Source: a virus
UHGV virus genome: UHGV-1333727
Direction: 5' to 3' (one strand)
Length of the DNA: 12,808 nt
Shown here: positions 1 to 12,271 of the stretch, in pieces
Layout of the letters: each line of letters begins with the position of its first letter
How positions within the stretch are numbered: the stretch's first letter is position 1
Position numbers and translations under genes: made by a program
The notes under the pieces: model-generated
Database searches by the model: none
Told to the model about the DNA's origin: nothing
What the model saw: the letters and a program-made list of their open reading frames with translations, nothing else

Positions 1-138
1 CAAAAACGCTACGTGATACACGATGTGGCGCTCTTTGACCAACCACGATCTGCAAAAATCCAAAATTACCCACAAAACAACCTCACCGGCGAGCTAAAAC
101 ACGCATGGTGCTACGACTGCATATCTTTAGCGGTCTAG
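1..138 (+). CDS. possible 3' end of a CDS that starts upstream of the window (partial)
   Basis: Frame 1 is open from base 1 to TAG at 136-138 (45 sense codons, ...RYVIHDVALFDQPRSAKIQNYPQNNLTGELKHAWCYDCISLAV*); the other plus frames and all minus frames are closed by stops. No start is visible and an open stretch this short can occur by chance. Confidence 0.2.
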   Translation, partial: QKRYVIHDVALFDQPRSAKIQNYPQNNLTGELKHAWCYDCISLAV

Positions 139-171
139 CTCGTTATAGAGCGTTTTAGAGAGGATTTTAAA

Positions 172-273
172 ATGGACGGTAAACACGTTTTCGCCCTGGC
201 CTTTGCCATCGCTGCTGCAATCGCTGTTAACGTCGCTTTGTTCGGCGGTTGGTTCCTTCTTGTCAATCCATAA
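172..273 (+). CDS. small hydrophobic peptide, 33 aa (MDGKHVFALAFAIAAAIAVNVALFGGWFLLVNP), predicted single transmembrane helix
   Basis: ATG at 172 preceded by GAGAGGA about 7 nt upstream; stop TAA 271-273. Below the ORF-track size cut-off, found by manual translation. No homology check possible. Confidence 0.35.
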   Translation: MDGKHVFALAFAIAAAIAVNVALFGGWFLLVNP

Positions 274-440
274 CCTTCATACCAGTCTGTAAATCAAAAA
301 TTAGCCACCTGAAAGCGCCTCTGACGCAATAAGACACTGCAACCTGTGCAAACGGGTTACGCGGTGGGATTTTTGCGTTGTAGCGCGTTTTATTGATTGT
401 ATCTATGTAAAAGCAAATTACTAAATGCGAGGTATTAATA

Positions 441-2258
441 ATGTCTAGATATTTTATATCGATAAGAGGAAGTAAATTGTTTGCAAAAATTGATGAAGGA
501 ATGGTGTTTATGCGGAAGCGTAAATATCAAACGTGGAATCATTGGGGTAAAGAAAGCGAGTTTGTACGCATGGTGGCCGGTGGCTATTGGAAGGAAATAA
601 CAGCGGTGGAAGCTGGCGATATTCAGTACGCTGATTGCAGCCAGTGCGCGGAAAATTGGCCTGAACTGTTTGATTATCATCCTGATGGTTTTCTGATTAG
701 TAAGGTGACTAGGGGGCGTGGGAAATGTCGTATTAAACCAGGCGATATAATTCGCGGGTTTAAATGCAAAAAAGGCACTGATTATGAACGTTTGCAAATC
801 GGTGTAAAAGATCGCTATTATCAACTGCATCGCGTTGTGTGGGAAATGTTTAACGGCCCTATTCCTGATGGGTATGTAATAGAAAACGGCGATAATTCAT
901 GCGCGAAAATTGAAAACCTGAAATTAATATCACGCGGCGAAAGAGGCATAAAACGTAAGCCTTGGGGAAATAGCGGTATCAAGGGCGTTCTATGGAATAA
1001 GGCGAAAAATAAATGGGAAGCAACAATTAAAGTTAATACAATAAATCACGGCTTTGGTTATTTCGATAATATTAACGACGCAATAAAAGAGCGCATCAAC
1101 GGCGAAATTAGATACTACGGTAAGCAAATGAACCACTTCCCTGATTATATCTCACCAGAAGAAGCGGAGCGCATAAAACAGCGTTATTACAAGGGTGACG
1201 AAATGAAACAAGAAAGTAACACGGAACCGCATGAACATGAGTTACCGCGAGTATTCAAATTTCACGGTCATAATATTAGCGTTAATGACGCCGATGAAAT
1301 CAATCTGATGGATATTGCTGCGGCGTATGGTATTAATGAGGATGAATTACGCCACCGCATTGAAAGCTTGAATAAATTACCTGGCTATATTTATTGCACT
1401 GAACAATGTGACATGCAGATCAAAAAAGGATATGCACCGCTTGAGATCGCAGGAATGATCGTGGCACGGATAGGAGCGGAAAAGGACAGGGTTGATTTAT
1501 CAGTAGCTTTTCGCAAATTTAAAGACAACCCTATCAGCGCGGCTATTGCGCAGCAAACAGATAGCAAACAGGTGGGAGATCTTAAATGCCAGGTAAAAAC
1601 GCTGGAGGGACAAATCAAGGAATTACATGGAGTGCTCAACATAGCGAGAGAAGATCGCGACAGCTACCAACTCCGCGTTGATTATTGGAAACACCAATAC
1701 AGCAAGGCGAATAAGGCATTTGGTGACGAACAGGGTAAACGCCAGAAGCTAGAAAGTGAGCGCGACAATCTGGTTAAAACTAATTGCGAACTAAGACAAA
1801 AGGTCAACGCTGCAAATAACGACGACGCAAAAGCGAAAGCTGCGGCAGACAAACAAACAATCAACGACATTCGTACAGATCTGGCAGAAGCGAAGGAAAC
1901 AATCAAAGCGCAACAACAGGAGGCAAGCAACAAGGCTCTAGTTATCAAGGGCTATCAGCTTAAAGTGGCAGAACTTGAGGATGATAAACTGGAACTGCAA
2001 AATAATGTGAACATCTTACAATCTGGCTATAACCAACTATCAGACAGATATAACAAACTGATTGCTCGCAACATGCAACGCCGGGCAGCACAAAAACGGT
2101 ACATGGGCGACCTGAAACAGCGTCAACAGCGCAATCATGAACGTTATCGTAAGCTGATAATGGCATTGCAAGACAAAGTAAAAGAATTACTGTACCGGCT
2201 CGATAAAAAGCCAGAAGACGGATTCTTTAGCAAGGTTAAAGGTTTATTTCACCATTGA
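441..2258 (+). CDS. HNH-endonuclease-like / AP2 DNA-binding domain protein with long C-terminal coiled-coil region (605 aa)
   Basis: ATG 441 with GAGGT 8 nt upstream. The segment ...YYQLHRVVWEMFNGPIPDGYVIENGDNSCAKIENLKLISRGE resembles the phage HNH_3 motif; ...GIKGVLWNKAKNKWEATIKVNTINHGFGYFDNINDAIKERINGEIRYYG matches the AP2 domain pattern (GV.W.K...KW.A.I.....LG.F....A..AY). C-terminal ~230 aa are K/E/Q/A-rich with heptad-like periodicity. Confidence 0.85.
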   Translation: MSRYFISIRGSKLFAKIDEGMVFMRKRKYQTWNHWGKESEFVRMVAGGYWKEITAVEAGDIQYADCSQCAENWPELFDYHPDGFLISKVTRGRGKCRIKPGDIIRGFKCKKGTDYERLQIGVKDRYYQLHRVVWEMFNGPIPDGYVIENGDNSCAKIENLKLISRGERGIKRKPWGNSGIKGVLWNKAKNKWEATIKVNTINHGFGYFDNINDAIKERINGEIRYYGKQMNHFPDYISPEEAERIKQRYYKGDEMKQESNTEPHEHELPRVFKFHGHNISVNDADEINLMDIAAAYGINEDELRHRIESLNKLPGYIYCTEQCDMQIKKGYAPLEIAGMIVARIGAEKDRVDLSVAFRKFKDNPISAAIAQQTDSKQVGDLKCQVKTLEGQIKELHGVLNIAREDRDSYQLRVDYWKHQYSKANKAFGDEQGKRQKLESERDNLVKTNCELRQKVNAANNDDAKAKAAADKQTINDIRTDLAEAKETIKAQQQEASNKALVIKGYQLKVAELEDDKLELQNNVNILQSGYNQLSDRYNKLIARNMQRRAAQKRYMGDLKQRQQRNHERYRKLIMALQDKVKELLYRLDKKPEDGFFSKVKGLFHH

Positions 2259-2339
2259 AAGCATTAGAACCACGTCATTTATGGCGGGTGATGTCAATTT
2301 TCTTTGTGAATATATATTCAGTAAACCGGAGAAAATAAA

Positions 2340-3008
2340 ATGTCTGAATTAATGGCGCTTAATGGGGCGAACGAAGTATTAACAATGTCTTCTCGTGAGA
2401 TCGCCAAGCTAACTGGTAAACGGCACGATCACATATTGAGAGACATTGACGCCATTGCCCCAAATTTGGGGGAATCAAGCAAATCAGTAACTTACAAAGG
2501 ATACAACAATCAAACACAGAGGGAATGGCTTTTAACTAAGCGTGACTCTTTGCTGGTTGTATCTGGCTATAGCGTTGAGTTACGTGCTCGCATCATCGAC
2601 CGCTGGCAGGAACTTGAAAAACGGGTACAGCAAAACGCCCCTGCAATTCCTCAAACATTAAGCGAAGCGTTGCGCCTTGCTGCCGATCTTGCTGAGGAAA
2701 AAGAACGGCTTGCACTGGTTAATAAGGAACTTGCGCCAAAAGCGGCTGTATGTGACGCGATAGTCAAAAACGATATGCACCGAACGGCTTCAGAGGTTGC
2801 TAAACCGCTGGGAATGTCAGCCGTAAAATTAAACAGAAAACTTTCGGCTGTTGGTGTTTACGATCTTCGCTGTCGCCGCCGTGTATTTAGTCAGTGGTTT
2901 ATTGATGAGGGCTACGGTGAAATGAGGGTAACTCACGATGGATATGAGCAGGCTGTATTCACTGCTAAAGGACAAGTATGGATCACTGAGCTTTTAACTT
3001 GTAACTAA
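2340..3008 (+). CDS. phage antirepressor, Rha-family N-terminal domain plus KilAC-type C-terminal domain (222 aa)
   Basis: ATG 2340 with GGAGA upstream. N-terminal ...LTMSSREIAKLTGKRHDHILRDIDAI... is the characteristic Rha regulatory-protein signature; C-terminal region resembles antirepressor KilAC domains. Assignment by recalled family signatures, not by search. Confidence 0.88.
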   Translation: MSELMALNGANEVLTMSSREIAKLTGKRHDHILRDIDAIAPNLGESSKSVTYKGYNNQTQREWLLTKRDSLLVVSGYSVELRARIIDRWQELEKRVQQNAPAIPQTLSEALRLAADLAEEKERLALVNKELAPKAAVCDAIVKNDMHRTASEVAKPLGMSAVKLNRKLSAVGVYDLRCRRRVFSQWFIDEGYGEMRVTHDGYEQAVFTAKGQVWITELLTCN

Positions 3009-3042
3009 GTATACAATTTGTTATTCGTGAGGAAATGACACT

Positions 3043-4161
3043 ATGTCACAAAGAAAGATAAGCGATGAGCAATTGATCGCTGAATATAACAACGGTTTAA
3101 CGTATAAACAGATCGCTGAAAAATATTGCATGTCAAAACGCAACGTCGAGCGTCTGGGCGCAAAACTTGCGAAACGTGGTTTATTATCAACACGCCGCGC
3201 GCCTGGTTTTGGCGTCAATGGCGAGTCGTTGCTAGTCGATAAAAACGGCAATGTGATCATGCGCTGGATTAAAACAGCCCGTGACCGCGACGAAATGGAA
3301 CAGCTAATGGAAGCGGCCCGCGACGCTTTCACGGATGAGATACCACGCGCGGAGGCTGTGCCAGTGCCTGAAATTGATTTCCAAAAAAGCCTGGCCCTTT
3401 ATCCGGTATTCGATCTGCATATCGGGGCACTTGCTCACAAAGCAGAATGCGGCGAGAGCTACGACACTGGGATCGCTGAGCGCGTGTTAAATGACTTCTT
3501 TGACTACGCTGTGGGCGCCGCGCCGATGTCTGAAAAAGCCGTTTTGCTTCTCGGTGGCGACCTGCTTCACTCTGATGGAATGGTTCCTGTTACACCAACA
3601 AGCGGGCACATTCTTGATCAAGATAGTCGCTATGCAAAACTTGTCTATGTAGCGATCCGGTCGGTACGGCGGGCGGTCGGGAAGATGTTGTTAAATCATA
3701 AGGATGTAGAAATCCAGGTGTTATCCGGCAATCACGACCAGTCAGGAATGATCTGGCTACGTGCTGCGCTGGCAGCTTTTTACGAAGACGAACCGCGCGT
3801 AACTGTTGATGTGTCCCCTGCTATCGTCCACCACACGCAGTACGGCAAAACATTCCTCGCTTACCACCACGGGCACACTATCAAAAAGCCAGAAAATTTA
3901 TTGTCGGCTTGCGTATCTGACTGGCGGGAGGATTTCGGCAAGTCTGCGGCGGTTTACGCTCATTGCGGGCACTGGCATCATCAACGGCTGATTGAATCAT
4001 CGTTAGGCGTTGTTGAGTATCACGGCACGTTAGCGGGTAAAGACGCTTACTCAACTAATGGCGGCTGGCGGTCACGTCGTATGGCAGCGGTGATTATTTA
4101 CAGCCAGGATCATGGGGAGATCGGGCGCTTTGTTTATTACCCTGAATATTCCATTTTGTAA
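3043..4161 (+). CDS. HTH-domain protein fused to calcineurin-like (Mre11/SbcD-type) metallophosphoesterase core; putative replication-associated protein (372 aa)
   Basis: ATG 3043 with GAGGA upstream; stop 18 nt before the helicase start. N-terminus ...GLTYKQIAEKYCMSKRNVERLGAKLAKRGL is HTH-like. Ordered phosphoesterase motifs: FDLHIG (res 123-128), GGDLLH (171-176), GNHD (229-232), HHGH (275-278), GHWHH (309-313). Confidence 0.85.
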   Translation: MSQRKISDEQLIAEYNNGLTYKQIAEKYCMSKRNVERLGAKLAKRGLLSTRRAPGFGVNGESLLVDKNGNVIMRWIKTARDRDEMEQLMEAARDAFTDEIPRAEAVPVPEIDFQKSLALYPVFDLHIGALAHKAECGESYDTGIAERVLNDFFDYAVGAAPMSEKAVLLLGGDLLHSDGMVPVTPTSGHILDQDSRYAKLVYVAIRSVRRAVGKMLLNHKDVEIQVLSGNHDQSGMIWLRAALAAFYEDEPRVTVDVSPAIVHHTQYGKTFLAYHHGHTIKKPENLLSACVSDWREDFGKSAAVYAHCGHWHHQRLIESSLGVVEYHGTLAGKDAYSTNGGWRSRRMAAVIIYSQDHGEIGRFVYYPEYSIL

Positions 4162-4179
4162 ACCGGAGGTAATGACATA

Positions 4180-5595
4180 ATGGTAACTGAGCAAATAAAC
4201 TCACTACGGCAGGAACGTGAAGCGTCAGTTATCGGCGGGCTGCTGTTAGGCGGCCTCACTCCTAACGCGCAAGATGTTCTCGCCACTCTGGATCCTGAAG
4301 TGTTCACGAGCCCGCTTTACAAACGTGCGTTTGAGGTTATCCGGGCGCAAGCCAGAAACAGGAATCTTATCGACGCGTTATTGGTTGGCGATGAGATTGG
4401 CAATGAAAACTTTGTTCCTCTGATGCAAACGGCGCGATCGTGTCCTTCTGCCGCAAACCTGAAAGGATACGCACAGCTACTACGTGAAGAGCACCAGCGG
4501 CGGCAGATGTTGGAACTCATCGACGATATGCGCTACAAACTGGAAACGGGGACGCTTGAGGTCGTCAAAGAGACGATGAAAGATTTTGATTCCCGGTATT
4601 CAAAATTGAAGGTAACGAAAGATAAGATCATTCCGGTTCTGTTGCGCGATGCGGTACAGGAATATACGGATGTTTTAAGCAAGCGCATGGAATGCGGTGT
4701 CAATTCTGACAACATCAAAACAGGTATAGAACCACTCGACGAAATGTTGGGCGGCATTAACGCTACTGATTTGGTACTTCTCGCCGGACGCCCTGGGTCT
4801 GGTAAATCTGCGTTGGCGCTGACAATTGCCCGCGCAGCCGCTGAACGCCCTTACCCTGGTGGTAAAGAACAGCGGGTTGGCGTTTTGCTCTTCACGCTTG
4901 AAATGTCACTCGATCAGATGACTGAGCGTGCTATCGCTGGCGCTGGTAATTTATCAACTGACTGCCTGCGCAATCCGGTAAAACTTGATGATGAGGGTTG
5001 GGCGCATGTAGGCCAGGGGATGAGCGCACTTGCTAATCTTGAGGTGTGGATCGTTGACGCGTCGCAGTTGACGGTTGAGGAAATACGCGCAACAACGGAA
5101 CGCATGAAGCAGGAACACCCGAACCTGGGTATGGTAATGATTGACTACATCGGTCTAATGAAGCTGGCTAAGGCCGAACGTCACGATCTCGCTGTAGGGC
5201 AATTGTCATGGTCGTTGAAGATGATGGCGAAAGAATTGCGCGTACCAGTGTTGGCGCTGGCGCAATTATCCCGCCGCGTTGAGGAACGACCGAACAAGCG
5301 CCCGAATAATTCTGATCTGCGCGATTCCGGGAATCTTGAACAGGACGCAGACCGGATCATCATGGTCTATCGCGACGGGTACTATGATGAACAGTCTGTT
5401 GCCCGCGAATATATGGAGATCATTGTTTCGAAAAACCGTCACGGGAAAACGGGGACTGTTTACCAGCGATTTGACGACAACGGCAATATCCTCCCTTGCG
5501 ACCAGGCCCGCGCAGCGTCTGCATGTATTCAGTCGATGAATCATCGCACAAGTCGATTTAACCAACGAAACAACCAGAATAACGCATCCTTTTAA
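4180..5595 (+). CDS. replicative DNA helicase, DnaB family (phage type, 471 aa)
   Basis: ATG 4180 with GGAGG upstream. N-terminal ...EREASVIGGLLLGG... DnaB N-domain signature, Walker A GRPGSGKS, ...MVMIDYIGLM..., ...LAQLSR..., and DLRDSGNLEQDADRIIMVYRD (DnaB motif H4/arginine finger region). Confidence 0.95.
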   Translation: MVTEQINSLRQEREASVIGGLLLGGLTPNAQDVLATLDPEVFTSPLYKRAFEVIRAQARNRNLIDALLVGDEIGNENFVPLMQTARSCPSAANLKGYAQLLREEHQRRQMLELIDDMRYKLETGTLEVVKETMKDFDSRYSKLKVTKDKIIPVLLRDAVQEYTDVLSKRMECGVNSDNIKTGIEPLDEMLGGINATDLVLLAGRPGSGKSALALTIARAAAERPYPGGKEQRVGVLLFTLEMSLDQMTERAIAGAGNLSTDCLRNPVKLDDEGWAHVGQGMSALANLEVWIVDASQLTVEEIRATTERMKQEHPNLGMVMIDYIGLMKLAKAERHDLAVGQLSWSLKMMAKELRVPVLALAQLSRRVEERPNKRPNNSDLRDSGNLEQDADRIIMVYRDGYYDEQSVAREYMEIIVSKNRHGKTGTVYQRFDDNGNILPCDQARAASACIQSMNHRTSRFNQRNNQNNASF

Positions 5596-5615
5596 TTAAC
5601 TTGAGCAAACGGCTT

Positions 5616-5650
5616 ACCGGAAAGTTGACCGCTTTCTGGTGGCTGTTTTT
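5616..5650 (+). terminator. candidate intrinsic terminator/attenuator between helicase gene and nin-like operon
   Basis: ACCGGAAAG (5616-5624), loop TTGACCG, CTTTCTGGT (5632-5640, one G-U pair), then GGCTGTTTTTGTG. The U-tract is offset about 5 nt from the stem, so likely weak. Confidence 0.3.
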
Positions 5651-5674
5651 GTGCTTAAAACGAGGCGAAAAACA

Positions 5675-6232
5675 ATGAGCATTGAACTTGAAGCAAAAAT
5701 TATCAATATCCTTGAACTTGATGGCATCGACACAATGCACCAGTTACGCCAGAAAACAGGATTATCAGCGGAATATGACGAAGCCGGATGCTTACCTGAG
5801 ACAATTAAACACTTAATCGACACTGGTATTGTTGAGCGTGTATATACATATTTTGGACCGCGCCGCCGCTTGTTGGGGTATCGAATTAAATATTTGTATG
5901 CGCAACGGCGCGATCGTGTGGCGGCGTTATTTAGTGACTACAGCGTTAAAAAGCGTATGCGCGACATTAGCGCTGAAACGGGAATACCGTGGAATTATCT
6001 TTCTCGTACTATGCGTTTAATGGTGATTGATGAAACGCTTTGCGTTGATCCAAATAGGCACGGGGTTAATTTTTACTCACTGTTTAAACCTGGGCGATTC
6101 GGTCACGCTAATGATTTGGCGTTTGACTTTGACAGTCGTCTGAACGAATACCGGAAAAATAACGGCCTGCTACCGGATAAACCAGTATTTGAGATTGAAA
6201 AACTTAACGGCGAAACGGGGTTGGAATTATGA
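5675..6232 (+). CDS. hypothetical protein (185 aa), first gene of nin-like operon
   Basis: The ORF track starts at a GTG (5639) with no RBS; the ATG at 5675 has GAGG about 9 nt upstream and is preferred. Stop overlaps the next start (ATGA at 6229-6232). No recognisable motif. Confidence 0.75.
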   Translation: MSIELEAKIINILELDGIDTMHQLRQKTGLSAEYDEAGCLPETIKHLIDTGIVERVYTYFGPRRRLLGYRIKYLYAQRRDRVAALFSDYSVKKRMRDISAETGIPWNYLSRTMRLMVIDETLCVDPNRHGVNFYSLFKPGRFGHANDLAFDFDSRLNEYRKNNGLLPDKPVFEIEKLNGETGLEL

Positions 6233-6435
6233 GACGGGTAATTTTTTATTCAGTTGAAACGTTTGTTGACGAATCTCACTTTAAATTCGCATGCGATCCT
6301 TGCGGCACAATGGTTTATACGCCGCCACTAATGCGCAAGTATAAGCACGTAAAATTTAACCGGGCTTTTGTGCCGATTCGTTACGCTTTGCAGGCGTTGC
6401 GCGGTGAATTACGAAACACAATGCGGATTGTGTAA
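6229..6435 (+). CDS. hypothetical small protein (68 aa)
   Basis: ATG 6229 overlaps the upstream stop (ATGA), indicating translational coupling; contains a single CDPCG motif. Same-strand position inside the operon supports a real gene. Confidence 0.6.
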   Translation: MRRVIFYSVETFVDESHFKFACDPCGTMVYTPPLMRKYKHVKFNRAFVPIRYALQALRGELRNTMRIV

Positions 6436-6444
6436 GGGGCGACC

Positions 6445-6642
6445 ATGAATAGGGAATTAGATTTGACCGTGGAAGACTTAAGCACAATTGCGGAATACAT
6501 GCGCGGCGACGATCCTGATAAGCCTGTTGTTGTTGATATGAGGTACTTAAAAAGCGCTTTTATGACAAGCTCGCGCCTAATTTCTTTGCGGGCGATCATG
6601 TATGCGCGGGCACAGTGGAAAAATAGCAACGGTGTATCATGA
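6445..6642 (+). CDS. hypothetical small protein (65 aa)
   Basis: ATG 6445 with AAGGGG 5 nt upstream; its stop overlaps the ninB start (ATGA at 6639-6642). Confidence 0.6.
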   Translation: MNRELDLTVEDLSTIAEYMRGDDPDKPVVVDMRYLKSAFMTSSRLISLRAIMYARAQWKNSNGVS

Positions 6643-7070
6643 GGCAAATCAGATTTGAAATAGTAAACGACGCCGTAAAAGAAAACGCTATCAGGCAGAT
6701 AAGGGAGATCCAGCCTGATAGCAAAAGCCCGCTGGTAATTACCATCCAGGAGAAAACCCGCTCACTGAGTCAAAACAGCCTTTTATGGGCGCTATTAACA
6801 GACGTTAGCGATCAGGTTAATTGGTACGGTAAAAAGCTGTCACCGGAAGACTGGAAGGCGGTATTCACTGCCGGGCTTAAGAAATATGGCGTTGTCCCTA
6901 ATCTGGATAAATCCGGCTTTGTTGTGCTGGGAACGTCAACCAGCCGGATGAGTAAAACAGAATTTAGCGAATTAATTGAACTGATCTACTCGTTCGGCGC
7001 TGAACATAATGTTCAATGGTCTGGTGACACTAAGTTGAACGAGGAATTTATAAAACGCTGGGGGCAATAA
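6639..7070 (+). CDS. ninB: NinB-family recombination protein (lambda NinB/Orf homologue, 143 aa)
   Basis: Protein aligns by eye along its length with lambda NinB as recalled from memory: shared blocks ...VITIQE..RSL.QN.LW..L.DVS.QV.W.G..L..E.WK.VFTA.LK...VVPNL...GFVV.G.STSRM...EF.EL.ELI..FG.E..V.WS... Confidence 0.9.
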   Translation: MRQIRFEIVNDAVKENAIRQIREIQPDSKSPLVITIQEKTRSLSQNSLLWALLTDVSDQVNWYGKKLSPEDWKAVFTAGLKKYGVVPNLDKSGFVVLGTSTSRMSKTEFSELIELIYSFGAEHNVQWSGDTKLNEEFIKRWGQ

Positions 7071-7246
7071 TGGTTAGTTATTACATGGCTAAACCTACAG
7101 GCATTTTGTATAAGATTGATGGCGAATACGTTTATTATTTTCACAACCAGGCGCGTGATTGGCGATTGTGTCACGCGCACTTTAAGCACGAAATAGAAAA
7201 TCACCCTGAATATTTTATCAAAGTTGACAATGTAACTGTGGCGTAA
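7070..7246 (+). CDS. hypothetical small protein (58 aa, MVSYYMAKPTGILYKIDGEYVYYFHNQARDWRLCHAHFKHEIENHPEYFIKVDNVTVA)
   Basis: Found by manual translation (below ORF-track cut-off). ATG at 7070 overlaps the ninB stop (TAATG); stop TAA 7244-7246, 14 nt before the next gene's start. Confidence 0.5.
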   Translation: MVSYYMAKPTGILYKIDGEYVYYFHNQARDWRLCHAHFKHEIENHPEYFIKVDNVTVA

Positions 7247-7260
7247 TTGAGGATAAGCAA

Positions 7261-7920
7261 ATGAATAAACTTAAAGTAATTGGCGTGATTAGCCATCGCA
7301 CTAACCCTGAGTGTTACCCATCGTTTGAGGTAACAACATGCCGCACAGAATATAATTTTGGATCATACTATTTATTGGGTGTTCGCGCGGATGGCGGCAC
7401 TTATTCGGTTATGGCTGCAAGCTGGAAATTTGATAAATACGCTAATTTATCTAATAAGGATGATGACGGCATGAATAAAGAAAGTGAGATCATTGATGAA
7501 TTAATCGAAGATGAGCGGCATGATTGCGAAACGCAACCGGAAAAAACTGAATGGTTGGCAGGCGAAAAGCCTCCTGTTGGTGTGTGGCTTGATTGTGTAG
7601 GTCTTACGAGCGGAACGGTTCTCGATGTCGTTAAATTTAAATATGTTGGTGATAAATGGGCTATATGTGAAAGCAAGGAAGATTTAGGCTTAGAGAGGCC
7701 GATATCATGGACGACATGCGCTTTCAGGATTCATGTTGGTCCGATAGAAAAGGCGCTTGCTGAAATAGCGTTCGCACTTGCAACTAAGGTCATGGGTGAA
7801 GACGCGGCAAAAGAGATTGACTTTAAACGTGACAACGATTTTACGTGCGATTATCGCAATATGGCGCAAGCAATTATTGATGGATGTATCGGACACGTTG
7901 AATACACGGGGAAAAGATAA
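7261..7920 (+). CDS. hypothetical protein (219 aa), two regions separated by an acidic linker
   Basis: ATG 7261 with GAGGA 8 nt upstream; stop overlaps the downstream start (TAATG at 7918-7922). No recognisable catalytic motif. Confidence 0.8.
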   Translation: MNKLKVIGVISHRTNPECYPSFEVTTCRTEYNFGSYYLLGVRADGGTYSVMAASWKFDKYANLSNKDDDGMNKESEIIDELIEDERHDCETQPEKTEWLAGEKPPVGVWLDCVGLTSGTVLDVVKFKYVGDKWAICESKEDLGLERPISWTTCAFRIHVGPIEKALAEIAFALATKVMGEDAAKEIDFKRDNDFTCDYRNMAQAIIDGCIGHVEYTGKR

Positions 7921-8150
7921 TGGATAAGACGGCAACAATTCTTCTTAGTCGCCCTGCCATCTGCCGTATGCTTGGGGGAATTAGCAGGGGAACGTTCTAT
8001 TCATGGCGTAAAAAGTGGGAGGAAAACGGAACTCCATTCCCGGACCCTGTTGATGTGTTGGGGACCGGGCGGGGCGTCATGTACCGCTATCAGGAGGTGA
8101 TGCGGTTCTTTGATAAGATCGGATTAACGCCAGCCAGGGATAAGACGTAA
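7920..8150 (+). CDS. AlpA-family (MerR-like) small DNA-binding protein, probable excisionase/integrase regulator (76 aa)
   Basis: ATG 7920 with GGGGA upstream. ...LLSRPAICRMLGGISRGTFYSWRKKWEENGTPFPDPVDVLGTGRGVMYRYQEVMRFFD fits the AlpA/Xis pattern (HTH followed by 'FP.P...G.R...W...EV..W'); it sits next to an integrase. Confidence 0.8.
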   Translation: MDKTATILLSRPAICRMLGGISRGTFYSWRKKWEENGTPFPDPVDVLGTGRGVMYRYQEVMRFFDKIGLTPARDKT

Positions 8151-9304
8151 TCCGCAAATTTATTTAACGCCTCCTTTTGTTCATCAAGATAATCATATTT
8201 GTCGTACACTGCCAGTATTCCCCTGAGTGAATGGCCTAATACCTTTTCCGCGACATGTACCGGAACACCTATAGCTGAAAGGTGTGTACGGCACGTCCTG
8301 CGGAGGTCGTGACAGGACCATGATTTGCCTCCCATCCTTTTACGCACGAAGATTGCAGCTACTTTTATCACTGATGCGTTTACTGGTCTGTTCCCTCCGT
8401 TAATCACTGGCGGGAACACATAATCATACTCATGGGAGGATAATACCTCCCTGAGCATTTTTATCGACAAATCTGATAATCCACGCCTGATTTCACTTCT
8501 TGTCTTCGCCACCGCCGCCGGGACGGTCCATACTCCGTTGTCCAGGTCGAGGTGTTCCCTTCTCATTTTCTGCAACTCCCCCACCCTGCACCCGGTTAGC
8601 AATAATAGCTTTAATGCTATCTTGTTCTGACGGTAGATCTGCGAATCATCCACCGTTCGCCAGAAATGGCCTATTTCATCGCACGATAAATAACGCTCGC
8701 CAACCGCATAATTTTCGCCTACGTCAACAACCCTGATATTGTTTATCGCTGTACTGGTCATTAGCCCGCGCCGGATAGCGCTGTTCACAACAATCTTCAT
8801 TCGCTTGAGTATCAGCCCAGCCGTAACCGCGTGGCCCGCCGCAGTGATCTCGCCGAATATGTCCATCCATTGTTTAGTGCTGACATCATCGGCAATATAC
8901 TCACCGAATTTATCGACAACATGGCGCTTAAGCGCGCTCCTGACGTCATTATATGCAACCAGCTTAATAACGTTCGGCAGGGATAAATAGTCACTCACAA
9001 TGGCGCTTATTGTTAATTTGCCACGCTCAATATTTATCGCTTGCTTTACTGAAACAGTTGGGTTTTTCCCCTTCGCTAATAGCTCTTTGTATTCTGCCAC
9101 CGCGTAGCGTGCATCTTTCAATGTCATACTGCCGTAATCGCCAATCTTCATCCTTACAGGCTTACCGTTGAACCTGTACCTGAACTGGAAAATAATTTTC
9201 CCCTTCGGGCTTATCCTGGCAGACAAGCCGTCGCGATCCGCTATCTCGTTCGGGCCGTCATATGGCTTGTTTGCTATTGCGCGTAATTTCGTATCCGTCA
9301 GCAT
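8090..9304 (-). CDS. int: tyrosine recombinase / integrase, P4-type (404 aa)
   Basis: ATG at 9304 (minus) with AGAGG 7 nt upstream. N-terminal LTDTKLRAIANKP...GLSARISPKGKIIFQFRYRFNGKPVRMKIGDY is the P4-type integrase arm-binding N-domain; catalytic region has ...TGCRVGE (Arg), HDLRRT (H-x-x-R) and ...GHSLRGILAVYDKYDY (His...Tyr). Confidence 0.95.
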   Translation of the reverse strand: MLTDTKLRAIANKPYDGPNEIADRDGLSARISPKGKIIFQFRYRFNGKPVRMKIGDYGSMTLKDARYAVAEYKELLAKGKNPTVSVKQAINIERGKLTISAIVSDYLSLPNVIKLVAYNDVRSALKRHVVDKFGEYIADDVSTKQWMDIFGEITAAGHAVTAGLILKRMKIVVNSAIRRGLMTSTAINNIRVVDVGENYAVGERYLSCDEIGHFWRTVDDSQIYRQNKIALKLLLLTGCRVGELQKMRREHLDLDNGVWTVPAAVAKTRSEIRRGLSDLSIKMLREVLSSHEYDYVFPPVINGGNRPVNASVIKVAAIFVRKRMGGKSWSCHDLRRTCRTHLSAIGVPVHVAEKVLGHSLRGILAVYDKYDYLDEQKEALNKFADYVLSLAGVNPILSKNRITS

Positions 9305-9320
9305 TCTGATACCTCTTTTT

Positions 9321-9342
9321 TTTGGTCACGATTTGGTACACA
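9321..9342. repeat. 22-bp direct repeat, copy 1 (TTTGGTCACGATTTGGTACACA)
   Basis: Matches copy 2 at 9562-9583 at 21 of 22 positions; contains GGTCACGAT. Confidence 0.7.
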
Positions 9343-9350
9343 GTTTTATC

Positions 9351-9472
9351 TGAACGGATATTAACACCATTGAACGGATTTAAACACACGACAGGATGAT
9401 TGAGATGTAACTTAGTGAATTTAAATGATATTTTTTATCAACCGTGAACGAGTCTGAACGGGATTGAACACC
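9351..9472. repeat. cluster of five TGAAC(G)-type iteron-like motifs
   Basis: TGAACGGATATTAACACC (9351-9368) and TGAACGGATTTAAACACA (9371-9388) are 20 bp apart; TGAACGAG (9445), TGAACGGGA (9455) and TGAACACC (9465) are phased at exactly 10 bp. Confidence 0.6.
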
Positions 9473-9561
9473 ACGAATCGTTACTGTCTGGAATGGTTAG
9501 CTTTGTGAATAATAATTTATAAAACAGTATGTTGCAGTGCTTTTGTTTTTGGTTTTGGGTA

Positions 9562-9583
9562 TTTGGTCACTATTTGGTACACA
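9562..9583. repeat. 22-bp direct repeat, copy 2 (TTTGGTCACTATTTGGTACACA), preceded by phased TTTGG tracts
   Basis: Copy of 9321-9342 with one mismatch; contains GGTCACTAT. Immediately upstream, TTTTTGG / TTTTGGG / ATTTGGT recur at roughly 8-10-bp spacing (9545-9580). Confidence 0.7.
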
Positions 9584-9608
9584 AAAAGAAACGAGGCGTT
9601 AGCCTCGT
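9583..9608 (-). terminator. rho-independent terminator of tail-fibre gene
   Basis: On the minus strand: stem ACGAGGC, loop TAAC, stem GCCTCGT (plus 9591-9608), followed by UUCUUUUU (plus 9583-9590), about 35 nt after the stop at 9641-9643. Confidence 0.6.
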
Positions 9609-9640
9609 TTCGCGCGGCGATGTTCTTCGCACATCACCTC

Positions 9641-11845
9641 TTATTCTTCGCTTCCGGTCAACTGACTGATAAGCGCTTCAAGTTTTGCTATCCGCTCATC
9701 CATTGCGGCAATGTTAGCTTTCAGGCTTGCGTTCTCCTCTTCCAGTTCGGTGACGCGGTTATCCGTTTCGCGTGCCACCTGGACAAGTAAACCAGTCACC
9801 GCCGCATAGTCAACATTAAGGTAACGTGTTTCTTCTCGTAGCTCGTTGCCGTCAACGGTCGGACCCTGCAATTCTTCACCGTAACGAGTAAACGATCCTA
9901 CGGCTTCCGGTAGCGCCTCCATTACTTCCTGTGCAATAACGCCAGCATAAGGAAGGCCGTTTTCCTTGAGCGTGTAGGTGTACCCGTTCATTTTGCGGAT
10001 TAATTCAGTGGCTTCACCTATAACCTGAATGTTATCTTTAAGGTCGCGGTCAGATGATTGGTGAAGTGTCTGGCATGTGATATTACCGCTAACTTCTGCG
10101 GTGGCGCTTTTAATCTTATACTCTACTGAGAGATCACGGACTTCAACCCTCCCATCGTGGCGAACAATAAGATCACCGTTTGTTTCACCTTTTGCGTTTT
10201 TAGCCCTGATGTGAACTTCTCCAAGCGTATCAGTATTTGTAGGCGCAAAAATAACGCCGCGTTCCGACTGATCCTCATTTTGGAACCATACATGGGCGGT
10301 TCCACTTTTTGAACGCAGGTATAGTGAAGGTGTTGCTTTAGTGATCGACAGATCACCTGACATAATGTCGCCGGATTTTTTCACCTGCGCATCGTTAGTT
10401 ACGTTACCAAGTCCAACATCCGATTTCGACGGCTTGTATTTGGTTCCGTATAGCTCATTTATGTTAAAAGTACCATTGTTGAGTCTATTATCGTTACTAG
10501 AGTAAATCTTTACTCTACCGCTTTCGTAATCGATATTAATAGCTGACCACGTATCGCCGCACCGCGAGAATATACCAGAACCGTGGCTGAAAATTGTTGA
10601 TTCGCTACCTGTTGGTTTTCCTGACCTCCAGAAACACCCACCTTTCGCCCTTAGCTCTTGTAGTAGTTCCTTATCGGTCATTTTACCATCCAAAGTAAGA
10701 CCGCTACCGCCAAGACCAAAAGCGCCTATAAGCATAGCATTAGAAAGGCCTAAATCTGCTTTAGTAGGTTTGTTTACCTGGTCGTAAATCCTTGCTGCTG
10801 GGCTTTCAATAAATCCTGAAGGTGCATTGTCTTGTTTAACAAATCCTTCAGGAATGTATAATTCCGTGTTGCCAGTCTGCGCCAGCACCGCTACTTTTGT
10901 GCCTTGAATATAAGATCGCTGGTAGCACCAGACCTCGATATAGCCGTCACCTTTAACCAGGCCGTAACGCATTTGACTATTATTGGGAAGGTTTGGTGAA
11001 CCGAGTCGGCGAATACTTAAAAATTTAGATATATTTTCACTGGTTACTTCGCCTGTGTCGTTAAGATCTCGAGCGGAGATCTCTATAAAGTCAATATTCC
11101 CGTAACTTAAACCGTAGCCACCGCCATTTGTAACCATTAGCGTTAAGTGGCACTCTGAAAACTTTGGATCGCTAAGTTTAGCAATCTTAACGTAAGCGCC
11201 ATTACCGCTAGTATTAACAGGCCAAGCACATTGGACCATTGGGCTGGTAAGCCTTCCCATTTGATTCAGATATTTTTGCGCCCTGTTCTCTGATGTTTTG
11301 GCGTTGGTTTCGCTTGTTTTCGCTGCCGTCTCACTTGCCTTAGCGTTGGTTTCTGATGTTTTCGCTGCCGTGGCGGATTTTGCAGCCGCTGTTTTTGACG
11401 CTTCTGCTGCGTTTTTGTCGGATCCTGTTTTTTGAGCGTTGGCGGTTGATTTGGCTGTCTCTGCGCGAATGTTGGTAAGAAGCTGATCCAACTGACCTTC
11501 GCCGCCAAAATCCTCCCACCACTCGACAGCGGCGGCGATCTCTGTTTCCTTGCCCTGGTAGTAACGCAGGGTTTCAGCCACATCCTGAGCAAGCCCATCA
11601 ACTGAGATCGAGTCAGATAGCAGGATGCTGAATTTTGTCCCGGCAGGGATGGCGGGGTTAGCCGCTGGCGTCACTGACAGTTCAGTGCCGCTTTTAATTT
11701 CTGTGATGGTAAAGATCTGTACCGGATTGCCAACAGCAATGAGCGTGCAACCTACACGAATAAGAGAAAGCGGCGCGGAAAAGTTTGTTCCCGTGCCTGT
11801 AACAGTATTGCCGTTGATGGCAATTGTTCCAGTTGTGTAAATCAT
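9641..11845 (-). CDS. phage tail fibre protein with Stf-like Ala/Lys/Thr/Ser repeat region and C-terminal intramolecular chaperone (peptidase S74-like) auto-processing domain (734 aa)
   Basis: ATG 11845 (minus) with GGAG upstream. Residues about 125-190 carry AAKTSETNAK-type repeats like those in lambdoid side tail fibres. C-terminal ~140 aa (...SSDRDLKDNIQVIGEATELIRKMNGYTYTLKENGLPYAGVIAQEV... then coiled coil) match the endosialidase-type chaperone domain with the Ser...Lys (S-x4-K) dyad. Confidence 0.9.
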   Translation of the reverse strand: MIYTTGTIAINGNTVTGTGTNFSAPLSLIRVGCTLIAVGNPVQIFTITEIKSGTELSVTPAANPAIPAGTKFSILLSDSISVDGLAQDVAETLRYYQGKETEIAAAVEWWEDFGGEGQLDQLLTNIRAETAKSTANAQKTGSDKNAAEASKTAAAKSATAAKTSETNAKASETAAKTSETNAKTSENRAQKYLNQMGRLTSPMVQCAWPVNTSGNGAYVKIAKLSDPKFSECHLTLMVTNGGGYGLSYGNIDFIEISARDLNDTGEVTSENISKFLSIRRLGSPNLPNNSQMRYGLVKGDGYIEVWCYQRSYIQGTKVAVLAQTGNTELYIPEGFVKQDNAPSGFIESPAARIYDQVNKPTKADLGLSNAMLIGAFGLGGSGLTLDGKMTDKELLQELRAKGGCFWRSGKPTGSESTIFSHGSGIFSRCGDTWSAINIDYESGRVKIYSSNDNRLNNGTFNINELYGTKYKPSKSDVGLGNVTNDAQVKKSGDIMSGDLSITKATPSLYLRSKSGTAHVWFQNEDQSERGVIFAPTNTDTLGEVHIRAKNAKGETNGDLIVRHDGRVEVRDLSVEYKIKSATAEVSGNITCQTLHQSSDRDLKDNIQVIGEATELIRKMNGYTYTLKENGLPYAGVIAQEVMEALPEAVGSFTRYGEELQGPTVDGNELREETRYLNVDYAAVTGLLVQVARETDNRVTELEEENASLKANIAAMDERIAKLEALISQLTGSEE

Positions 11846-12022: not shown

Positions 12023-12271
12023 ATGAAAAACATGTTCAAAGTGGTTTTGTTCGCTGCGGCTGTAGCTCTTACTGGATGTGCTGTTGATAAGGAAGCTGCA
12101 TTGCATAACCTGCCGAATAGTGGAGTAATTCCACAGGATGTTGTTTATGATGTTAACGGGCATCTTGTCTATGACACTGAAAAACTGCCTTATACTGGTC
12201 AATGGTGTCACGAACTCGATCACAACATGCGCCGCATCGGTAGCCCTTCTAACTGTGTAGCTAACTACTAA
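12023..12271 (+). CDS. small lipoprotein (82 aa); candidate phage superinfection-exclusion / receptor-masking lipoprotein
   Basis: ATG 12023 with TGAGG upstream. Signal peptide MKNMFKVVLFAAAVALTG followed by Cys (lipobox LTGC); mature part ~63 aa with three further Cys; followed directly by a strong terminator. The functional call is inference from context. Confidence 0.85.
   Translation: MKNMFKVVLFAAAVALTGCAVDKEAALHNLPNSGVIPQDVVYDVNGHLVYDTEKLPYTGQWCHELDHNMRRIGSPSNCVANY

Follow-up and report, generated by a model that had tools for sequence, protein, structure and literature searches.

The temperate coliphages of the mEpimmI group were defined together with four types of integrase (PMC11893012, Front Microbiol 2025). 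Integrases of types Ia and Ib target the 5' end of ydaM (= dgcM), type II targets abgT and type III targets mppA, which was placed about 7 kb further along (PMC11893012). For mEp021, the insertion in ydaM was mapped and validated by PCR; furthermore, the att motifs of types Ia and Ib were reported to differ by 3 bp (PMC11893012). The terms arm-type, excisionase and origin of replication are absent from the text of that paper; arm-type sites, type-specific repeat arrays and a candidate excisionase are therefore not described there. For KplE1, arm sites of IntS and sites of TorI were shown to overlap the promoter PintS, resulting in negative autoregulation by IntS and TorI, and Int and Vis of P4 are cited in the same paper on KplE1 (PMC2951348).

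Here, a stretch of 12,808 nucleotides of the virus genome UHGV-1333727, referred to as the window, was analyzed. Positions 9305-9640 of the window are almost certainly the un-recombined attP of an mEp021-like temperate coliphage of the mEpimmI group with an integrase of type Ib. The integrase (Int) encoded in the window showed 96.5-97.5% identity to those of mEp021, mEp515 and mEp554, and the MIN12 prophage, assigned to type Ib (PMC11893012), is 100% identical to window positions 8900-9492. The location and the target of the att site were already known from the publication on the mEpimmI group. The present analysis adds a map of candidate arm sites, candidate sites for the recombination directionality factor (RDF, excisionase) and the cassette boundaries, as deduced from comparison with related phages.

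Features of the att region and its flanking genes

The features of the region and of the adjacent genes are as follows.

7920-8150, plus strand: 76-aa HTH protein, candidate excisionase/RDF; convergent with int, 61-nt overlap with the 3' end of int
8090-9304, minus strand: tyrosine integrase of 404 aa (mEpimmI type Ib), with the start codon directly adjacent to the att site
9321-9342, plus strand: int-proximal arm with two candidate Int arm-type sites in tandem (TTTGGTCAC ga TTTGGTACACA), located 17 nt ahead of the start codon of int
9351-9387, plus strand: two copies of the 17-bp motif (TGAACGGATATTAACAC, TGAACGGATTTAAACAC), 20 bp apart, specific for the integrase type
9388-9444, no strand: A/T-rich spacer of the int-proximal arm, recognized by composition and alignment, varying between integrase types
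9445-9471, plus strand: three TGAAC repeats with 10-bp phasing (TGAACGAGTC TGAACGGGAT TGAACAC), ending 12 bp before the core; candidate array for an RDF or for further Int protomers
9484-9492, plus strand: common core CTGTCTGGA
9493-9561, no strand: spacer of the tail-fibre-proximal arm, with an A/T-rich stretch and T-rich TTTGG tracts (9548, 9554)
9562-9583, plus strand: tail-fibre-proximal arm with two further candidate Int arm-type sites in tandem (TTTGGTCAC ta TTTGGTACACA), oriented like the first pair
9578-9611, minus strand: intrinsic terminator of the tail-fibre (late) transcript, with a hairpin from 9611 to 9588 and a T-run from 9587 to 9578; outer edge of the att region
9641-11845, minus strand: tail fibre gene, 734 aa with a C-terminal S74 chaperone domain (Pfam Peptidase_S74 and PHROG tail fibre families), the last late gene

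Two Pfam domains were identified in Int, namely Arm-DNA-bind_3 (PF13356) at residues 2-88 with an E-value of 1.3e-20 and Phage_integrase (PF00589) at residues 206-367 with an E-value of 1.3e-21; among the Pfam arm-binding families, including that of lambda, PF13356 was the only one matched.

The original prediction had interpreted the repeats next to the integrase as a candidate attP or, alternatively, as a replication origin. The 22-bp direct repeat, the five TGAAC motifs and the TTTGG tracts on which it was based were found at, or within 1 nt of, the places where it had located them, and they occur far above chance. The two copies of the 22-bp repeat, TTTGGTCACGATTTGGTACACA (9321-9342) and TTTGGTCACTATTTGGTACACA (9562-9583), are located 241 bp apart on the same strand and are identical in 21 of 22 positions; when the 336-bp region was shuffled 200 times, 22-mers matched in 13-18 positions at best. 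Each copy is itself a tandem pair of TTTGGTCAC / TTTGGTACAC with a period of 11 bp. TGAAC occurs on the plus strand at 9351, 9371, 9445, 9455 and 9465, with a spacing of 20 bp between the first two copies and of exactly 10 bp between the last three. These are five copies, whereas the remainder of the window contains 0.67 per 336 bp, and the minus strand of the region contains none. At three of these sites, TGAAC is part of a 17-bp motif, TGAACGGnnnTnAACAC (9351-9367, 9371-9387 and 9455-9471). TTTGG is present six times, at 9321, 9332, 9548, 9554, 9562 and 9573, as compared to 0.40 expected copies. The predicted AT-rich stretches were also confirmed, with a GC content of 0.35-0.37 across 9300-9600 versus about 0.5 in the flanking genes.

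The terminator at the outer edge of the region was detected by a terminator scan (RNA fold of -30.4 kcal/mol, z -4.75), and it is annotated in mEp554 and mEp013. The sole Rfam match was at chance level (E 0.49), and a structured RNA was therefore rejected. The IHF consensus WATCAANNNNTTR was not matched with one mismatch or fewer on either strand of 9300-9645; IHF sites are a feature of lambda and are not required of every attP.

Strand exchange within a 9-bp core in dgcM

Among 5,426 complete E. coli genomes that were searched, nine carried prophages matching window positions 8900-9492 with 94-100% identity. The match ends at 9492 in all nine of them, and the chromosome then runs into dgcM (ydaM). 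On the tail-fibre side, the similarity of the integrated relatives to the window resumes from position 9484, and both flanks of the prophages consist of dgcM. In MIN12, the int-side junction reads CGTTACTGTCTGGA, directly followed by TCGTTTCGCC, and the far junction, about 54 kb away and beside ynaN/zntB, reads CCAGTCCTGTCTGGA, directly followed by ATGGTTAGC. The uninterrupted attB of K-12 inside dgcM has the sequence CCAGTCCTGTCTGGATCGTT. The core CTGTCTGGA is the only stretch common to attP, attB and both prophage junctions; therefore, strand exchange takes place within these 9 bp (9484-9492). The core corresponds to codons 15-18 of dgcM and is located between the two 22-bp repeats. Since both arms are intact and flank this core in the window, the window represents the un-recombined phage form and not the integrated one.

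These results support the attP reading of the original prediction, including its view that the contig shows the element in the phage form. The attL/attR-type junctions and the core that were to be sought in related prophages and bacterial genes were found in E. coli prophages and in dgcM, respectively; the junctions lie inside the region and not elsewhere, and the repeats are conserved among homologous elements. The lack of a recognizable tRNA end, which had been pointed out for a P4-type integrase, was confirmed by ARAGORN, which detected no tRNA gene in the window, and is explained by the target being a protein-coding gene.

Identity between attP and attB extends over 12 bp in type Ia (GTCCTGTCTGGA) versus 9 bp in type Ib, which fits the published 3-bp difference between the att motifs of these types (PMC11893012). 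Furthermore, the host primers B1 and B2 of the same study flank the core within dgcM, and primer T1 of that study closely matches window positions of about 9066-9088 within int (PMC11893012). Inspection by eye of attP of types Ia and Ib and of attB revealed no conserved core-type inverted repeats.

Upon integration, attP is divided between two junctions, and a dgcM stub of 19 codons remains. The dgcM reading frame meets a TAG two codons past the core, and the portion of dgcM on the other side does not regain a canonical start codon.

Conserved arm repeats and type-specific arrays

Ten intact or reconstructed attP sites were aligned, namely three of type Ib (window, mEp554 and L013), five of type Ia (IMG/VR contigs) and two of type II (mEp013 and MagusPhagus). 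The 22-bp double repeats were the sole non-coding blocks that were invariant on both arms. The terminator was invariant as well, except for one loop substitution in L013, and GAATG beside the core, in the tail-fibre-proximal spacer, was kept in all three integrase types. In all types, equivalent positions of the alignment were taken by the core, by the 17-bp motifs and by the phased array adjacent to the core, albeit with type-specific sequences. In the columns of the 17-bp motifs, TGTACGG... was found in type Ia and GCATGG/GGGAACGAT... in type II; the array adjacent to the core consists of T(G/A)AAC in type Ia, and type II carries the repeats GnAACGAT/GTGACACGAT.

In line with this pattern, the proteins encoded next to the att site diverge to different extents between types Ib and II:

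Int residues 1-90 (arm-binding): 69% identity
Int residues 91-200 (core-binding): 34-38% identity
Int residues 201-404 (catalytic): 53-55% identity
76-aa HTH protein (7920-8150): 44% identity

At the nucleotide level, the window and the type II phages are about 90% identical through the helicase and the early genes up to position ~7952, where the similarity is lost; it is regained at ~9541. Thus, an exchangeable cassette is made up of int and the HTH gene together with the inner arms and the core, and the outer arm sites are located at or beyond its edges.

Additionally, more distant relatives were compared. Int of Salmonella phage vB_SosS_Oslo and of Proteus phage Pm34 is 46% and 43.5% identical to the window Int, respectively, and the Int N-domains of Oslo, Pm34 and the E. 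coli element EcPF15 are 56-66% identical to that of the window. In each of these elements, two GTACAC pairs with a period of 11-12 bp were found on one strand, at about +20/+31 and about +255/+270 relative to the start of int; in EcPF15, the far pair is degenerate. Repeats of the TGAA(A)C type are present between the first GTACAC pair and the core in all three, and an HTH homologue is convergent with the 3' end of int. The geometry shared with Oslo and Pm34 is consistent with a role of the conserved pairs as Int arm-type sites. Arrays with a phasing of about 10 bp occur at the same place in types Ia and II, Oslo and Pm34, again with type-specific sequences. A scan of genome contigs for Int revealed only relatives with 30-34% identity (Xenorhabdus, Photorhabdus) and provided no comparison at intermediate distance.

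The 22-bp repeats were tentatively assigned to Int, and the TGAAC repeats to an RDF, on the basis of conservation and co-variation across only three integrase types and three outgroups. The candidate for such an RDF is the 76-aa protein. It matched Pfam HTH_23 with an E-value of 4.8e-7 and HTH_17 weakly; the match to the NCBIfam family Xis_Gifsy_1 (E 0.004, 17 bits) was below the cut-off of 60. An AF2 model obtained from single-sequence input, in which two of five models were confident, showed a winged helix (pLDDT 82.7). The top PDB fold match of this model in Foldseek was the GIsul2 excisionase (probability 0.97, E 0.08), and the excisionase RdfS was also among the fold matches; a comparison with PDB by sequence gave no meaningful match. 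A homologue was found at the same int-adjacent position in six lineages, i.e. in every lineage examined, with an identity of 87-88% in type Ia and of 41-50% in the type II phages, Oslo, Pm34 and EcPF15. Together, these observations lend modest support to a role of the winged-helix protein as an excisionase.

A different assignment within an attP would treat the TGAAC-type repeats as extra Int arm-type sites or as host-factor sites and the 76-aa protein as a regulator unrelated to excision. The 17-bp motifs end in AACAC, which resembles the GGTACAC of the arm pairs, and the evidence for an excisionase function of the HTH protein is weak; moreover, the N-domain of Int itself diverges between types, so that type-specific arm sites are possible. 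However, within Int this N-domain is best conserved, and the 22-bp pairs do not vary at all, whereas the TGAAC-type motifs diverge to the same degree as the HTH protein (44% identity). The repeats are furthermore confined to one arm, phased by about 10 bp and adjacent to the core, which is the layout of the Xis/RDF arrays of lambda and of mycobacteriophage L5. Sites for a host factor should also remain the same regardless of the integrase type. We consider this assignment rather unlikely.

The replication origin, which the original prediction had offered as an alternative, is very improbable. On this reading, the region would be or contain the origin of phage replication, and the TGAAC and TTTGG motifs would be initiator iterons beside unwinding A/T-rich DNA. 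The direct repeats with their 10-bp phasing and the dip in GC content to 0.35 agree with such a function, and replication genes are encoded in the same window (DnaB-like helicase, 4180-5595). Yet the sequences of the TGAAC-type repeats are entirely different in types Ib and II, although the helicase and O-like genes are about 90% identical to the window in both; since the repeats change with the type and the replication genes remain constant, the repeats follow the cassette of int and RDF and not the replication module. In the close relative mEp554, at least four iterons resembling those of the lambda origin (GGTGTCTCTCTGACACTACCC, period of about 22 bp) are located inside the O-like HTH_36 initiator gene, which maps just upstream of window position 1. 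Furthermore, the region is physically split upon integration. The origin was rejected on account of the co-variation with the integrase cassette and of the iterons in the O-like gene of mEp554.

Virion DNA ends (cos or pac) in this region are practically negligible as an explanation and were rejected: the GenBank records of mEp554, mEp021 and mEp515 do start and end between window positions 9489 and 9490, but this cut lies inside the 9-bp core common to dgcM, the records run from int first to tail fibre last and thus in prophage order, the prophage junctions are found at the same place, and MagusPhagus and several IMG/VR contigs, linearized elsewhere, read straight through the region.

A possible retargeting cassette compared with known systems

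Recombination at the attP site may be envisaged as follows. The adjacent heterobivalent Int would bind the core through its central and catalytic domains, and its Arm-DNA-bind_3 N-domain would bind the two tandem pairs TTTGGTCAC/TTTGGTACAC at 9321-9342 and 9562-9583. Through this contact with the arms, an intasome comprising about 260 bp of folded A/T-rich DNA would be formed, and the divergent core-binding and catalytic region of Int presumably reads the type-specific core. The TGAAC-type repeats, which are present on the int-proximal arm only, would most likely be bound head-to-tail by the winged-helix protein encoded at 7920-8150, acting as excisionase; the array with 10-bp phasing beside the core is the clearest case of candidate RDF sites. 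By analogy with KplE1 and P4, binding of Int and RDF probably also regulates int.

The promoter of int must lie inside the int-proximal arm, because int points away from the core and the DNA beyond the core is host DNA in the prophage. A consensus scan of the int (minus) strand revealed no sigma-70 consensus promoter. Reading by hand, a candidate extended -10 element for int, TGtTAATAT, was noticed on the minus strand from 9366 to 9358, within the first 17-bp motif; it is kept in types Ia and Ib.

We tentatively propose, as a possibility slightly less probable than its opposite, that int, the HTH (RDF) gene and attP (~7952-9540) constitute a portable, self-regulating retargeting cassette of fixed architecture. 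This architecture would comprise two tandem GTACAC pairs of the same orientation about 230-240 bp apart, a one-sided array with 10-bp phasing by the core and an int promoter buried in the arm, and it would have been kept from E. coli phages to those of Salmonella and Proteus at about 44-46% Int identity. Phages that are otherwise almost identical would move between dgcM and abgT if the core-binding region, the RDF and the inner arm were exchanged and the outer arm sites retained. Recombination between prophages residing in the same chromosome could then delete the host genes between their sites; such a deletion is seen in MLI107.

The attP and its 9-bp core fix the ends of this prophage family, and the cassette boundaries explain how closely related gut phages use neighbouring chromosomal sites. 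The conserved geometry delimits an attP fragment of about 263 bp (9321-9583) with named motifs for biochemistry, which could also serve as an integration tool for a non-tRNA locus. The current understanding of site-specific recombination remains unchanged by these findings. The diguanylate cyclase DgcM is required for the control of curli and biofilm. Lysogeny cuts its gene after codon 17, a link already raised in the study of the mEpimmI group (PMC11893012).

The closest described site is that of mEp021 and the other mEpimmI phages, which share with the window the integrase type, the target and the position of the att site between int and the tail fibre gene. The window represents a further member of this group, with several attP positions differing from both L013 and mEp554.

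The attP of lambda resembles that of the window in comprising a short core flanked by repeated arm-type sites within about 260 bp of A/T-rich DNA, a heterobivalent Int and direct-repeat accessory sites on one arm only. The original prediction had also noted a likeness of the 22-bp repeat to the arm-type consensus of lambda Int. This holds for the letters, as GGTCACTAT (9565-9573) is identical to the 9-mer of P'1 when lambda attP is read directly; in the relatives, however, only TTTGGTCAC and TTTGGTACAC are kept and TAT is not. Because only GGTCAC/GGTACAC persists in the relatives and the Int N-domain matches PF13356 only, and not the lambda-type arm-binding family, the resemblance is regarded as a functional analogy that is partly coincidental and not as family membership. 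The four arm sites of the window are arranged in one orientation as two tandem pairs, whereas P2 is inverted and P' holds three sites in lambda. Moreover, attP is located upstream of int in the window but downstream of the 3' end of int in lambda, and the window phage targets a coding gene, unlike lambda. The window attP also differs from that of lambda in the missing IHF consensus match, and a lambda-style dependence on host bending factors is unsupported.

The systems IntS-TorI of KplE1/HK620 and Int-Vis of P4 share with the window a P4-like integrase with an Arm-DNA-bind_3 domain and an int gene abutting an att arm, so that in the window, too, the int promoter would overlap the candidate sites of Int and RDF. 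KplE1/HK620 and P4 integrate in tRNA genes, whereas the window phage integrates in dgcM. The P' arm sites of KplE1 have TAAA in common (PMC2951348), and the arm-site sequences of the window differ from them. Autoregulation is known for KplE1 and would apply to the window phage by analogy. Finally, the candidate RDF gene of the window is convergent with int and overlaps it, unlike the modules of KplE1/HK620 and P4.

Hybrid prophage between the dgcM and abgT sites

A prophage was found to join the junctions of two integrase types:

L032 about 1501 and L033 about 2158 (stretches of E. coli MLI107, NZ_CP116987.1): hybrid prophage

The tail-fibre end of this prophage lies at the dgcM (type I) junction with CTGTCTGGA, beside ynaN/zntB, and its int end lies at the abgT (type II) junction, adjoining ogt. 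The host genes that span roughly 7 kb between the dgcM and abgT att sites are missing from MLI107, and the arrangement in E. coli strain 127 (NZ_CP023377.1) looks the same. A ">7 kb deletion" had been left open in the mEpimmI study (PMC11893012); it is probably explained by recombination of two co-resident prophages at these neighbouring att sites.

Attachment site and the adjoining int and HTH genes

Alignment of attP from int types Ia, Ib, and II revealed that GAATG, directly right of the crossover (window 9491-9496), is kept in all three types despite their differing cores and attB sites; GAATG is possibly a core-type half site common to the int types. A related module was found in a bacterial chromosome:

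L009 2776-3031 (stretch of E. coli EcPF15, NZ_CP054227.1): int/HTH module

The DLP12-like genes ybcK, emrE, and ren lie on one side of this module and espL1 on the other. Its two arm repeats remain next to an Oslo-like core (GATCACATACAAAG); the site therefore looks like an intact attP unused as a junction.

In the window, the gene of the HTH protein, a candidate excisionase/RDF (7920-8150, plus strand), and int (8090-9304, minus strand) are convergent, and their 3' ends overlap by 61 nt. The two genes likewise overlap or closely abut in mEp013, Oslo, and Pm34. As this arrangement recurs, control of the HTH/RDF candidate and int by antisense or transcriptional interference is conceivable.

Further features of the window

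Three additional features were identified:

441-2258, plus strand: 605-aa ORF with HNH_3 endonuclease domain
11287-11391, minus strand: 42-nt/21-nt tandem repeats inside the tail fibre gene
12023-12271, plus strand: 82-aa ORF between tail genes that run on the other strand

Only 59-68% of window 1-8100 is covered by relatives, and some of these have a homing endonuclease annotated at the position of the 605-aa ORF, which together suggests that the early region holds a mobile insertion. The tail fibre repeats, located in the N-terminal part of the coding sequence, show 79% and 62% identity to the reference copy. For the 82-aa ORF, there is a match to a lipoprotein family of PHROG at E 9e-27; its product is possibly Lpp, the superinfection-exclusion lipoprotein that mEpimmI phages have been described to carry.

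Iterons in the O-like gene of mEp554

An iteron array was located within the O-like HTH_36 initiator gene of mEp554:

L031 4392-4503 (about 8191-8302 of the mEp554 record): at least four copies of GGTGTCTCTCTGACACTACCC

The period is about 22 bp, and the array has its place just upstream of window position 1. The term "origin of replication" is absent from the mEpimmI paper (PMC11893012). The iterons of mEp554 are a lambda-style origin inside the initiator gene.
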